Assembly (NCBI GenBank): GCA_038861545.1
Contig: JAWCCZ010000004.1
Coordinates: forward strand, 160,001-224,000
DNA length: 64,000 bases
Source of the DNA: Thermofilaceae archaeon
Lineage (GTDB): Archaea; Thermoproteota; Thermoprotei; Thermofilales; Thermofilaceae
Direction of reading: 5' to 3'
Shown: one piece after another, positions 27,430 through 31,426 of the stretch
How positions within the stretch are numbered: the first letter of the stretch is position 1
How the letters are laid out: each line of letters begins with the position of its first letter
Translations under genes and position numbers: made by a program
Notes under the pieces: generated by a model
The model's database searches: none
What the model saw: the letters and a program-made list of their open reading frames with translations, nothing else
Told to the model about the DNA's origin: nothing

Positions 27430-28782
27430 ATGAAAATAGCGGTTATAGGTTATGGGACAGCTGGCATGACCGCAGCAATCTATGCTAAGCTAACATGTAG
27501 GAAAAGCGAGGTTGAAGTTTTCGAGAAAAGACCTTATGCTGTATACCACCCGTGCTCTTTACCTGACGCTATAGCAGGTTTAATACCGCTTGAGTCTATC
27601 ATAGAAGAAAAAGTCACAATACCAGGTATTAACGTTCGAACTTCAACAGTAGTTGAAGAAATCGATACTGAGGGTAGAAAACTTAAAGCTAGGGATTTAA
27701 AGAGCGGAGAGGTTCTGTACAGGGACTACGACAACCTGATTTTAGCAACCGGTTCAAGACCGTTTATTCCTAGATCAGTGAACATATTAGAAAGCAGCTG
27801 CGTTTACACGCTCCGGTTAGTGGAAGACGCTAAGTTTATCAGCGAAGCAGCTACAAAGTATAATTCAGTCGTAGTGGTTGGCGGGAGCGCTCTTGGGATC
27901 GAAACTGCTTATGCTTTGAAAATAAGGGGTTTAAACGTCACACTTGTAGAGTACTTTCATCAACTAATGCCTGGTAAGCTGGATTTCGAAATAGCTAAAA
28001 TAGTCGCCGAGAAACTGAGCTCTAAAGGTATTAATCTTATGCTCGGTGAAGGAGTAGTTGAAGTAAGCGGAGCACCTGGGACAAAGAAAGTAACTACCTC
28101 TTCAGGTAGGGAATTAGAGACAGGGTTTGTCGTATTTGCAACCGGTATTAAACCGGACATAGATCTTGCCAAGCAGATAGGTGCCGAGATAGGTCAAACA
28201 GGCGGTATCAAAGTTGACGAGCATATGCGAACAAGCATTGACGGTGTGTATGCGGCAGGCGACGTAGCAGAAGTTAGGGATTTAATCACCGGCAAGCCCA
28301 CTCTCAGCCAATTTGCAAATACAGCATTAATTATGGGACGAATAGCTGGGATAAATGCCGTCGGTGGCGATACGTATCTAAGAGGAGTATTGCAAAACTG
28401 GATAGTTAACCTGGAAGGCTTTAAATTTGGAAGTGTAGGATTAACTGAAGAAAAAGCCAAGAAAGCCGGAATAGACGTGGTCTCTGTATCTGTAACTGCT
28501 ATGGATAAACCCTTGTTTTATCCAGGCTCCGAAAATATCACCGTTAAGCTAATAGCAAATAGCGAAGGAAAGTTGATTGGTGTACAGGTTGTCGGAGGGG
28601 GTAACGTCGTCGAGAAACTGAATGTTCTATCCGCTTCAATTTTCAGTGGTATGACCGTATCCGATTTGCCTTACCTAGAGTTCGCTTACGTACCTTCGCT
28701 TAACGAAGTTGTCCATCCAATATACACCGCTGCTGATGCGCTACTCAGAAGGCTTCAAAGAAAAGCCAAAATAATGCAGTAA
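27430..28782 (+). CDS. NADH oxidase / CoA-disulfide reductase family flavoprotein
   Basis: GYGTAG, redox Cys in YHPCSLP, ATGS, YAAGD, FAYVPSL. Confidence 0.85.
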   Translation: MKIAVIGYGTAGMTAAIYAKLTCRKSEVEVFEKRPYAVYHPCSLPDAIAGLIPLESIIEEKVTIPGINVRTSTVVEEIDTEGRKLKARDLKSGEVLYRDYDNLILATGSRPFIPRSVNILESSCVYTLRLVEDAKFISEAATKYNSVVVVGGSALGIETAYALKIRGLNVTLVEYFHQLMPGKLDFEIAKIVAEKLSSKGINLMLGEGVVEVSGAPGTKKVTTSSGRELETGFVVFATGIKPDIDLAKQIGAEIGQTGGIKVDEHMRTSIDGVYAAGDVAEVRDLITGKPTLSQFANTALIMGRIAGINAVGGDTYLRGVLQNWIVNLEGFKFGSVGLTEEKAKKAGIDVVSVSVTAMDKPLFYPGSENITVKLIANSEGKLIGVQVVGGGNVVEKLNVLSASIFSGMTVSDLPYLEFAYVPSLNEVVHPIYTAADALLRRLQRKAKIMQ

Positions 28783-29266: not shown

Positions 29267-30294
29267 CTCATAATTCCAACATAGTTTCCTTTTGTAAACT
29301 TAGCCACACTAATCAGAAGCTTTGTTCCGCTTATTAATGGTTCAACATCCTCAGCTGATACTCTGTGCCTAGTATTTATTACAACTGTTTCGATCTTATT
29401 TCTGGCGATTAGTGAAGCAACATCCAGCACCGAGCGCACGGCTGGATCTAATGAGATATAACTTGAGTCGCCTCTTTTCCTCTCAAGAGGCACATTTGCA
29501 TTACCATCGCTGATAACTACAAGAACCGGCTCGTAACCCTTCCGTCTCTCCCTTAGAGCCATGTTGTAACCCAGGTACATTCCAGCGGCTAGCGGGGTGA
29601 AATCATCTAACCCAACGCGCACTATTTTGCCCAACATTAAGTTGAAATTCGTGGTAGGGTGCTGGACAATGGTTGCACTGGAACCCTTACATACGATCAA
29701 AGCTACACGGTCTCTGTACCTGCGAGCCTCTTTCTCTATAGCTTTGAGCGCGGTCATTATTCCCCTTATAGAGTACGCCATCGAAGCACTGGAGTCTAAG
29801 ACTATCACAAGCGAGACCCTAGCCCTACCGCTAAGTAGCTTAGCCATGAGCGATTCCCAGCTTATGGTGGGAAATTCCATCCGAGAAGCACTTTTCCTGA
29901 GAGTCGCAGGAAAGTGTATCTTGAAGTATCGCTTCTTCGGCAAGGTAGAATCAACTGTAAGAGAAGCCCCTTCCATCCTTCTCTTACCCTTATACCTTGC
30001 GCTTTTACGCGAAACATTGATCGCTAACTCTGTGAGCTGACTTGGCTCAACCCATCCCCCGAGAATTTTCAAACCCCTAGAGAGAGATAAAAAGTTCCTC
30101 TTGAAGTCTATGGAGGAAGAATAAGCTACGTAGACCGCCTTACGAGTTTTAAGCAGGGCCCTTTTACCTGAGTATATCGAATCTTTATTGAGAAGCATGC
30201 TTAGGATGAACCATATTACAGCTGCAAGCGCAGCCAGTACTAAGTCTATGAATGCTAAGGCTATTAGAAGCGCTCCCATGAAAAGCGTTAGCAA
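29263..30294 (-). CDS. ChlD-like vWA domain protein with an N-terminal TM hairpin (frame open up to 30348)
   Basis: MIDAS DSSAS, RDRVALI, TPLAAG, ISDGNANV. Confidence 0.8.
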   Translation of the reverse strand: MLTLFMGALLIALAFIDLVLAALAAVIWFILSMLLNKDSIYSGKRALLKTRKAVYVAYSSSIDFKRNFLSLSRGLKILGGWVEPSQLTELAINVSRKSARYKGKRRMEGASLTVDSTLPKKRYFKIHFPATLRKSASRMEFPTISWESLMAKLLSGRARVSLVIVLDSSASMAYSIRGIMTALKAIEKEARRYRDRVALIVCKGSSATIVQHPTTNFNLMLGKIVRVGLDDFTPLAAGMYLGYNMALRERRKGYEPVLVVISDGNANVPLERKRGDSSYISLDPAVRSVLDVASLIARNKIETVVINTRHRVSAEDVEPLISGTKLLISVAKFTKGNYVGIMS

Positions 30295-30322
30295 TACATC
30301 GGCTTTCCTCGATAATCTAAGG

Positions 30323-31426
30323 TTAGAAACTCCACCTGGGAAAAAACTTTACCTGCTCTTTCTTTTCTTCTCCAGCTTTTTCCACCTTCTGCACGGGAAG
30401 CTTTTTACCTGAGACTTCGCTAAAAGCTGCTCGAAGCTCCTCTTTAGTGGGTGGCGGTTTTAATCCCTCCGCCCTTGTTCGGTGCCCCAATGCCAGCCTC
30501 AACCCTTCTATCGCATCCTCCTCAATAACTTCGTACCTCCCGTTCAGTGCTGCTAGAGCCCTAGCAACTTTTACAGCTACGATATCCGGCCTATAACCAT
30601 CAACTTCTAACCTTGCACAAACTTTTGAAATTAAATCTACTACCGAGTCGCTAACCTTTATTTTAGGAAGAAGTTCCTTCGCAATGGCTATTCTGGCTTT
30701 TATCTCTTCTTCTGCGGGCACCCACTTACTGATAAACAACTGAGGCTCGGATTCCAGCTCTAAATTCCTTTTTACTATTTCCATCCTCAACTTAGGGTCG
30801 TGTACAGTCTCTAGTTTTACACTTATAGCAAATCTGTCTAAGAGCTGAGGTCTAAGCTCGCCCTCTTCCGGATTCATTGTTCCTATCAGTATGAATCTCG
30901 CAGGATGCTTAAGAGATATCCCTTCCCTTTCCACGACGTTCCAACCAAACGCGGCTGAATCGAGGATCGAGTCTACTACGTGATCTGGGAGCAAATTAAC
31001 CTCATCGACATAAAGGATCTGTCTATTAGCCCTGCCAAGTAGACCTGGTTCGAAGACTAACCTACCTTCCCTAAGGGTTCTCTCAATGTTTATTGTACCC
31101 AAAACCATGTCCTCTGTAGCGCCTATCGGTAATTCAACTATCGACATCGGTACTTCGCTGATAAGTAGTTTCTCTCCGTGTTCCCATTTTGACCTGCATA
31201 AGTCACACATACCCTCAGGTGACTCGGGATCACAGTTGAATGGGCAACCTTTTACCACTTTTATAAGTGGTAAAAGGTTGGCGAAGCTTCTGACTATACT
31301 GGATTTACCTGTGCCCTTGGGACCCATAATTAATAAACCCCCAATTGATGGATCAACGGCTAAGACAAGAAGCGCCGTCTTTAGGTCATCCACTCCAACA
31401 TAAGCTGGGAAGGGTAGTAATCGCAC
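30323..31426 (-). CDS. ChlI/BchI-type AAA+ ATPase
   Basis: GPKGTGKS, CPFNCDP, GATED..LG, FEPGLL, YVDEVNLL, MNPEEGELRPQLLDRF. Confidence 0.92.
   Translation of the reverse strand: MRLLPFPAYVGVDDLKTALLVLAVDPSIGGLLIMGPKGTGKSSIVRSFANLLPLIKVVKGCPFNCDPESPEGMCDLCRSKWEHGEKLLISEVPMSIVELPIGATEDMVLGTINIERTLREGRLVFEPGLLGRANRQILYVDEVNLLPDHVVDSILDSAAFGWNVVEREGISLKHPARFILIGTMNPEEGELRPQLLDRFAISVKLETVHDPKLRMEIVKRNLELESEPQLFISKWVPAEEEIKARIAIAKELLPKIKVSDSVVDLISKVCARLEVDGYRPDIVAVKVARALAALNGRYEVIEEDAIEGLRLALGHRTRAEGLKPPPTKEELRAAFSEVSGKKLPVQKVEKAGEEKKEQVKFFPRWSF

Follow-up and report, generated by a model that had tools for sequence, protein, structure and literature searches.

Does the minus strand of this stretch encode two chelatase-like proteins in two genes, or one gene read in two frames? 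The question is raised by two overlapping open reading frames (ORFs) in a 64,000-nucleotide (nt) window from a Thermofilaceae archaeon (GCA_038861545.1, contig JAWCCZ010000004.1; "the window" refers throughout to this whole stretch). The genome is 92% complete. The upstream ORF encodes a ChlI-type AAA+ ATPase, and the downstream one, in the +1 frame, encodes a vWA domain of the ChlD type. Comparison of this junction with those of related genomes makes recoding of the gene, whether by the ribosome or during transcription, very probable.

On the minus strand, the junction reads ...GTA AAG TTT TTT CCC AGG TGG AGT TTC TAA, with the T6 run at 30346-30341 and its trailing C at 30340. The AAA frame ends with the TAA at 30325-30323, five codons past TTT TTT C. 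Upstream, the +1 frame is closed by a TAA at 30351-30349; from 30348 onward, 361 codons are open before its stop at 29265-29263. Joined after Phe-Phe, the long product has 720 amino acids (aa) and the junction ...EQVKFF/PGGVSNLR..., and it is identical whichever position of the run carries the shift. The listed start of the vWA ORF is a TTG at 30294, with GAGG 12 nt upstream. All coordinates given in the initial annotation of this DNA, which had proposed a programmed +1 frameshift here, proved correct when the sequence and the ORFs were re-read. The features of the locus are as follows.

31426-30323, minus strand: ChlI-type AAA+ ATPase, 0-frame ORF, short product (367 aa, C-terminus ...EQVKFFPRWSF); ORF listing, Pfam, PDB and TIGR matches
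30348-30326, minus strand: stretch open in both frames, 23 nt, in which the shift must fall; bounded by the TAA of each frame
30346-30340, minus strand: candidate shift site TTT TTT C, in the 0 frame Phe-Phe and then the first base of CCC; invariant and in phase in 24/24 junctions
30339-29263, minus strand: +1-frame part of the long product, stop included; collinear with TIGR02442 positions 404-617
30303-30187, minus strand: hydrophobic two-helix hairpin, 39 residues (ADVLLTLF...FILSMLLN), predicted membrane anchor with K/R on both flanks; sequence and AlphaFold model of the orthologue L011
29811-29296, minus strand: vWA domain region; Pfam VWA_2 (E 6.4e-08) and VWA (E 7.9e-06), TIGR02031 BchD-ChlD positions 406-580
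29796-29782, minus strand: MIDAS motif (for metal ion-dependent adhesion site) D-S-S-A-S (DxSxS); conserved among orthologues

Conservation of the junction in the order

Of the 41 species-level genomes of the window's order, 25 have an orthologue of the locus; none was found in the 79 genomes from the rest of the class. All named records with an orthologue are metagenome-assembled genomes of uncultured Thermofilaceae, Thermofilales or Thermoproteales. In one genus of the order, represented by eight genomes (several of them in 1-4 contigs and 95-99% complete), the orthologue was not found. The junction could be read in 24 species, of which 20 are frame-broken and four are fused in frame.

In all 20 frame-broken species the shift required to join the two frames is +1, and in none is it -1. 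All of them have an overlap between the two frames, 11-155 nt long. Each of the 24 species has the heptamer TTTTTTC at the homologous place, always phased as TTT TTT C relative to the AAA frame. In an alignment anchored on the heptamer, its columns carry 2.0 bits each, and the flanking columns carry at most 0.9 bits. Both Phe codons of the site are TTT in 24/24 species, compared with 44% of the upstream Phe codons of the same genes (107 TTT, 137 TTC). The run has six T in 23 species and seven in the remaining one. In two orthologues, L019 and L035, the stretch open in both frames is only 11 nt long and holds little beyond the heptamer. The presence of TTTTTTC in the same phase at every readable junction argues that the frame break with its heptamer is more than chance. 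The short product also appears to be selected: in the window's family its tail (PRWSF, PRWTF or PRWAY) is kept through synonymous changes (AGG/CGA, ACC/ACG; L003 versus L004), and this retention of PRW[ST]F in the 0 frame points to selection on the short form as well. The programmed +1 frameshift proposed to join the AAA+ and vWA frames is therefore supported by comparative sequence (20 of 24 junctions broken, every one of them +1). In the orthologue alignment both the frame break and the slippery run are conserved, and the orthologues are neither all fused nor provided with a conserved independent start.

The four in-frame fusions (L011, L017, L018 and L033) encode proteins of 722-741 aa. TTT TTT C is retained in all four, and it is here the +1 frame that stops, either immediately (C TAA; L011, L017 and L018) or after two codons (L033). 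When a maximum-likelihood tree was built from the long products, the broken and in-frame states could be placed on it only with three independent switches, which fall on branches of 0.4-0.7 changes per site. In the four fused species the long protein would come from standard decoding and the short ATPase from a +1 shift. A functional site and a need for both products would account for this reversed layout, which is otherwise hard to explain.

In-frame ChlI-vWA fusions of 780-860 aa were also found in other classes. Proteins with a ChlI-type AAA+ module, a two-helix hairpin and a vWA domain in a single frame, 775-880 aa in length, are present in other archaeal lineages (P0013-P0044; L045-L051 and L060). 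One named record of these AAA-2TM-vWA (2TM, two transmembrane helices) fusions belongs to Candidatus Bathyarchaeota, and these fusions have no Phe-Phe site; one of the proteins, L045, has an in-phase A7 run just ahead of the hairpin. In another family of the phylum, three in-frame ChlI-vWA fusions with a soluble linker carry an in-phase TTT TTT C with differing flanks (L053, ~2503; L054, ~2492; L055, ~2491; coding-strand coordinates in genomes G452, G236 and G131, respectively). The heptamer lies there about 130 residues past the ATPase, and in two of the three genes the +1 frame stops at once (C TAA). These sequences suggest that the wider family may have a second, hidden site for a short product.

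Domains of the predicted products

In the AAA+ ORF the Walker A motif (GPKGTGKS, residue 35), the Walker B motif (ILYVDE, residue 137) and the NPEEGELR motif (residue 185) are all intact. The ORF matches the Pfam families AAA_lid_2, AAA_5 and Mg_chelatase, solved structures of ChlI (PDB 8osf, E 3.6e-102) and the TIGR02030 BchI-ChlI profile (E 1.1e-119). Assignment to the MoxR-type ATPases was rejected, since the match to Pfam bpMoxR (E 1.5e-07) is far weaker than those to ChlI. A MoxR-vWA conflict or defence system was likewise rejected, with only a marginal AAA match reported by PADLOC (E 5.4e-05).

The +1 frame consists of about 12 residues, a 39-residue hydrophobic two-helix stretch and a vWA domain with a MIDAS. 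The MIDAS residues D167, S169, S171, T233 and D263 (pattern DxSxS..T..D) are invariant among 19 orthologues. Catalytic and MIDAS residues are kept in both halves across orthologues at 40-90% identity, and from this pattern both halves are judged to be under purifying selection. Aligned to TIGR02442, a fused profile named 'putative cobaltochelatase', the AAA ORF spans positions 2-338 and the vWA ORF positions 404-617; this collinearity of both ORFs with one profile supports a single recoded gene. The initial assignment of the two frames to the ChlI and ChlD types holds for both: the first by the PDB and TIGR02030 matches and, for the natural fusion L011, by Foldseek, the second by Pfam VWA and VWA_2, TIGR02031, TIGR02442 and the invariant MIDAS.

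A structural model was made with AlphaFold (AF2) for the natural in-frame orthologue L011 (722 aa; mean predicted local distance difference test score, pLDDT, 84.9). In this model the AAA+ module occupies residues 1-335 (Foldseek template modelling score 0.9 to BchI/ChlI) and is followed by a disordered linker (345-372), which holds the Phe-Phe site. A helical hairpin comes next (375-415; helices 375-395 and 397-415; pLDDT ~90), and a middle domain and the vWA domain lie C-terminal to it. The hydrophobic two-helix hairpin is conserved in all orthologues, and the soluble Pro-rich or acidic linker of the ChlD/CobT type is absent. The linker between AAA+ and vWA is thus predicted to be a membrane hairpin rather than the soluble linker of the ChlD type. 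K/R residues flank the hairpin on either side, which suggests that the AAA+ and vWA domains are both cytoplasmic.

Proposed mode of recoding and alternative explanations

The best explanation of the junction, and a likely one, is a ribosomal +1 shift on UUU UUU C in one recoded gene rather than two genes. Standard decoding would give the 367-aa soluble ChlI-type ATPase, and a fraction of the ribosomes would slip +1 on UUU UUU C. In this shift the P-site tRNA-Phe (anticodon GAA) would quit its G-U wobble on UUU and re-pair with UUC, and the E-site tRNA-Phe could re-pair from UUU to UUU. Shifted ribosomes would produce the 720-aa protein, composed of the ATPase, a short disordered linker, the membrane hairpin, the middle domain and the MIDAS vWA domain. 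Short and long product would then come together in the manner of ChlI/ChlD and CobS/CobT, as an ATPase ring with vWA adaptor arms that here would be tethered on the cytoplasmic side of the membrane. From the comparisons we infer that the shift occurs, that it is ribosomal and that it is substantially efficient, as well as the assembly and the topology of the products.

At the site a UUU in the P site is followed by C, so that tRNA-Phe can re-pair to UUC. In the genome Aragorn calls one gene for tRNA-Phe(GAA), but its calls on intron-bearing tRNAs there are inconsistent. A 'tRNA-Phe (AAA)' with a 43-nt intron, called by the same program at G000:C5:98650-98768, is probably an intron-bearing tRNA that was parsed wrongly. 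Sequences of the form UUU_Ynn are known to be prone to +1 shifts, and influenza virus shifts +1 at UCC_UUU_CGU (PMC5009743). In the long ORFs of the genome, in-frame TTT_TTT_C was observed nine times, with 19.5 occurrences expected from synonymous shuffles (z -2.6), and no depletion of TTTTTTC was found in the other two phases. At the eight other in-frame TTT_TTT_C sites of the genome the +1 frame stops within 0-8 codons, and no downstream ORF follows. In the same set of long ORFs, 100 in-frame TTT TTT pairs were counted versus 243 TTC TTC pairs, at a single-codon usage of ~48:52, with T6 ahead of C or T as the rarest class. The UUU_Ynn precedent, the fixed length of the run and, as a weak test, the depletion limited to phase 0 make ribosomal slippage the preferred reading over transcriptional slippage.

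Several observations weigh against a ribosomal shift at this site. Nine classes were tested for depletion, of which this is one, and an unrelated class is just as low. The codon after the site is not shared among species (CCN in nine, CGN in nine, CTN in four and CAT in two). A hungry-codon explanation was rejected for the window species, in which CCC occurs at 9.5 per 1000 and is not rare; the CGN codons each stand at ~5 per 1000 in this genome. Stimulatory RNA structure was also rejected, as none is conserved (mean z -0.17 downstream and -0.41 upstream). A Phe-Phe pair conserved in both frames would also yield the observed phase and trailing C, and these features do not separate ribosomal from transcriptional slippage. 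One signal could serve both layouts only if its efficiency is high or if the ratio of products is not critical. The support for recoding is comparative throughout, coming from aligned sequences.

Slippage of RNA polymerase, which would drop one U on the T6 run and so place a subpopulation of transcripts in frame (or out of frame, in the four fused species), is a less likely source of the same two products and is rated as rather unlikely. It would explain both layouts equally well, the site is a homopolymer, and the loss of one base gives exactly the +1 frame. Hybrids of rU:dA are weak, and heat weakens them further. In related chlD genes the run is poly-A, on which slippage is possible at either level (PMC3711429). 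Six bases are nevertheless short for productive slipping, and the run is fixed at six in all species but the one with seven, whereas slippage sites usually vary and lengthen; the restriction of the heptamer depletion to phase 0 also argues, weakly, for an event on the ribosome. Still less probable are two ordinary adjacent genes, with the vWA protein started by re-initiation or from a non-canonical codon and the in-frame species arising by secondary fusion. Public annotation does list an 'ATP-binding protein' or 'Mg-chelatase subunit ChlI' and a separate vWA ORF, the window has its TTG behind GAGG, and AAA+/vWA pairs encoded by two genes are common, for example CbbQ/O and NorQ/D. This arrangement leaves unexplained a 7-nt block that is invariant at synonymous positions in 24 species and kept even in the fused ones, as well as the constant +1 relation of the frames. 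In addition, no start codon of the vWA frame is conserved across the frame-broken orthologues, and translation from most candidate starts would cut into the conserved hairpin. The first ATG, GTG or TTG of this frame lies at least three residues inside the first hydrophobic helix, or beyond it, in 17 of 19 frame-broken species. In L020 the first possible start is codon 83, past the whole hairpin, and the TTG at 30294 of the window is CTG in the sister species L002 (90% identical). No second ChlI-like gene was found in the window genome at its 92% completeness, where the only other candidate is a weak 316-aa AAA+ protein (E 5.6e-8); the single ChlI-like gene counts in favour of one gene giving both products.

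An assembly or sequencing error in the homopolymer, or a decaying gene, is extremely improbable. All of the genomes are metagenome-assembled and the break does fall at a homopolymer; the same break nevertheless recurs across 20 species-level assemblies, each 90% cluster has many independent contigs with it, the Walker and MIDAS motifs are intact, and both halves appear to be under purifying selection. Independent contigs from NCBI, JGI, ENA and Logan contain the same AAA ORF of 365-367 aa, or of 354-355 aa from another start. This agreement of independent assemblies disposes of the homopolymer error that the initial annotation had named among the findings that would overturn its proposal. No fused form of ~720 aa is listed among the 90% protein clusters, outside which long fused forms might fall, and a gapped pattern scan of metagenome contigs gave no population variants of the run length.

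Relation to known systems and possible function

Frameshifted chlD genes (fs-chlD) that give both subunits have been published, with -1 shifts on A-runs tested in E. coli (PMC3711429), and have been reviewed (PMC5009743). Among them, -1 types outnumber +1 types, and orphan fs-chlD genes without a large subunit or a tetrapyrrole pathway were described in anaerobic thermophilic bacteria (PMC9227772). The locus analyzed here resembles fs-chlD in that one gene would give a ChlI-like short product and an AAA+-vWA long product, with a conserved slippery run at the domain boundary; in both cases in-frame fused homologues exist and there is no separate chlI gene. It differs from the published cases, mostly -1 on A-rich runs with downstream structure, by a +1 signal on UUU_UUU_C with no detectable structure. 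Further differences are the membrane hairpin linker, the origin in an uncultured order of Thermoproteota and the occurrence of one site in both layouts.

With the bacterial UUU_Ynn sites and the UCC_UUU_CGU site of influenza A PA-X and related RNA viruses, the heptamer shares a UUU followed by C, at which GAA pairing is improved in the +1 frame (PMC5009743). Downstream structure is not needed at those sites, and here too a CGN codon follows in 9/24 species. Unlike those sites, the one described here has tandem UUU codons, a next codon that is not consistently rare and an archaeal host. The shift predicted for the in-frame species would truncate the protein and remove its C-terminal domains, as in gamma versus tau of bacterial dnaX. 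The dnaX shift, in contrast, is -1 on A_AAA_AAG with stimulators, and it occurs in an unrelated protein family. For Archaea, only -1 frameshifting (fucA1) had been shown experimentally according to a 2021 review (PMC8211752). A literature search found no paper that links Thermofilaceae with chelatase frameshifting.

Recoding of chlD itself is thus known, and what would be new relative to published fs-chlD (PMC3711429, PMC9227772) is the bare UUU_UUU_C +1 signal, the hairpin, the lineage and the use of both layouts. A wider reading, put forward tentatively and falling somewhat short of probable, is that UUU_UUU_C acts as a bare, structure-independent and fairly efficient archaeal +1 signal, used in both directions within one order, and that the product is a membrane motor with a non-tetrapyrrole client. 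If true, this would be the first well-supported case of +1 frameshifting in a cellular gene of Archaea, and the chelatase motor would gain a new role. The site is compact (7 nt) and invariant, and the three natural switches of layout provide built-in controls. For annotation, the pair should be recorded as one recoded gene, and public records have two.

The putative client was approached through the genes of known chelatases. As the initial annotation had stated for the window, no chelatase H or CobN gene is present there, and CobN/ChlH (PF02514) was not found anywhere in the 92% complete genome. HemB (PF00490) and CbiX (PF01903), the only other pathway markers searched, were not found in it either. 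PF02514 was also not found in 17 of the 25 orthologue-carrying genomes of the order. A ChlI/ChlD motor is thus predicted to work as a membrane-anchored machine where CobN, HemB and CbiX were not found, which argues against annotation as a Mg or Co chelatase and points to a membrane client. The client is probably not a tetrapyrrole.

CobN was found in 9/41 genomes of the order. Seven of these have, on the contig with CobN, another open frame that matches vWA and, where complete, reads as one uninterrupted frame of 650-730 aa. Some relatives have a canonical CobN with an in-frame ChlD-type paralogue next to it, alongside the recoded membrane form. Such loci include G035:C19:7122-12154, G012:C50:25023-30536, G023:C97:7615-12946, G027:C37:5008-10394 and G030:C8:22372-27691; CobN takes up two open frames, one after the other, in G023, G027 and G030. 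The CobN-associated paralogue is also a ChlI-type AAA+/vWA fusion. It differs in matching the window vWA frame in the vWA domain only (30-37% identity), and it is not present in the window genome. Since this CobN-linked paralogue is separate from the recoded gene, the latter is a distinct paralogue and its client is not CobN.

The likely assembly, by analogy with the ring-and-arm systems ChlI/ChlD, CobS/CobT, CbbQ/O and NorQ/D (10.64898/2026.10.09.757910), is an ATPase ring with client-gripping vWA-MIDAS arms, which the hairpin would hold at the membrane. The neighbourhood of the locus yielded no specific partner gene. The protein of 175 aa encoded upstream (window 32024-31497, minus strand) has no Pfam or NCBIfam match and occurs lineage-wide in the order. 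It was rejected as a specific partner: it lies near the gene in 9/15 loci, yet it is present in 37/41 genomes, including those of the genus without the AAA/vWA gene. The locus is flanked on one side by a protein disulfide oxidoreductase (window 32711-32034, minus strand; TIGR02187, E 4.1e-66) and on the other by a pyridine nucleotide-disulfide oxidoreductase (window 27430-28782, plus strand). The linkage of these oxidoreductases to the locus is kept only in the closest relatives.

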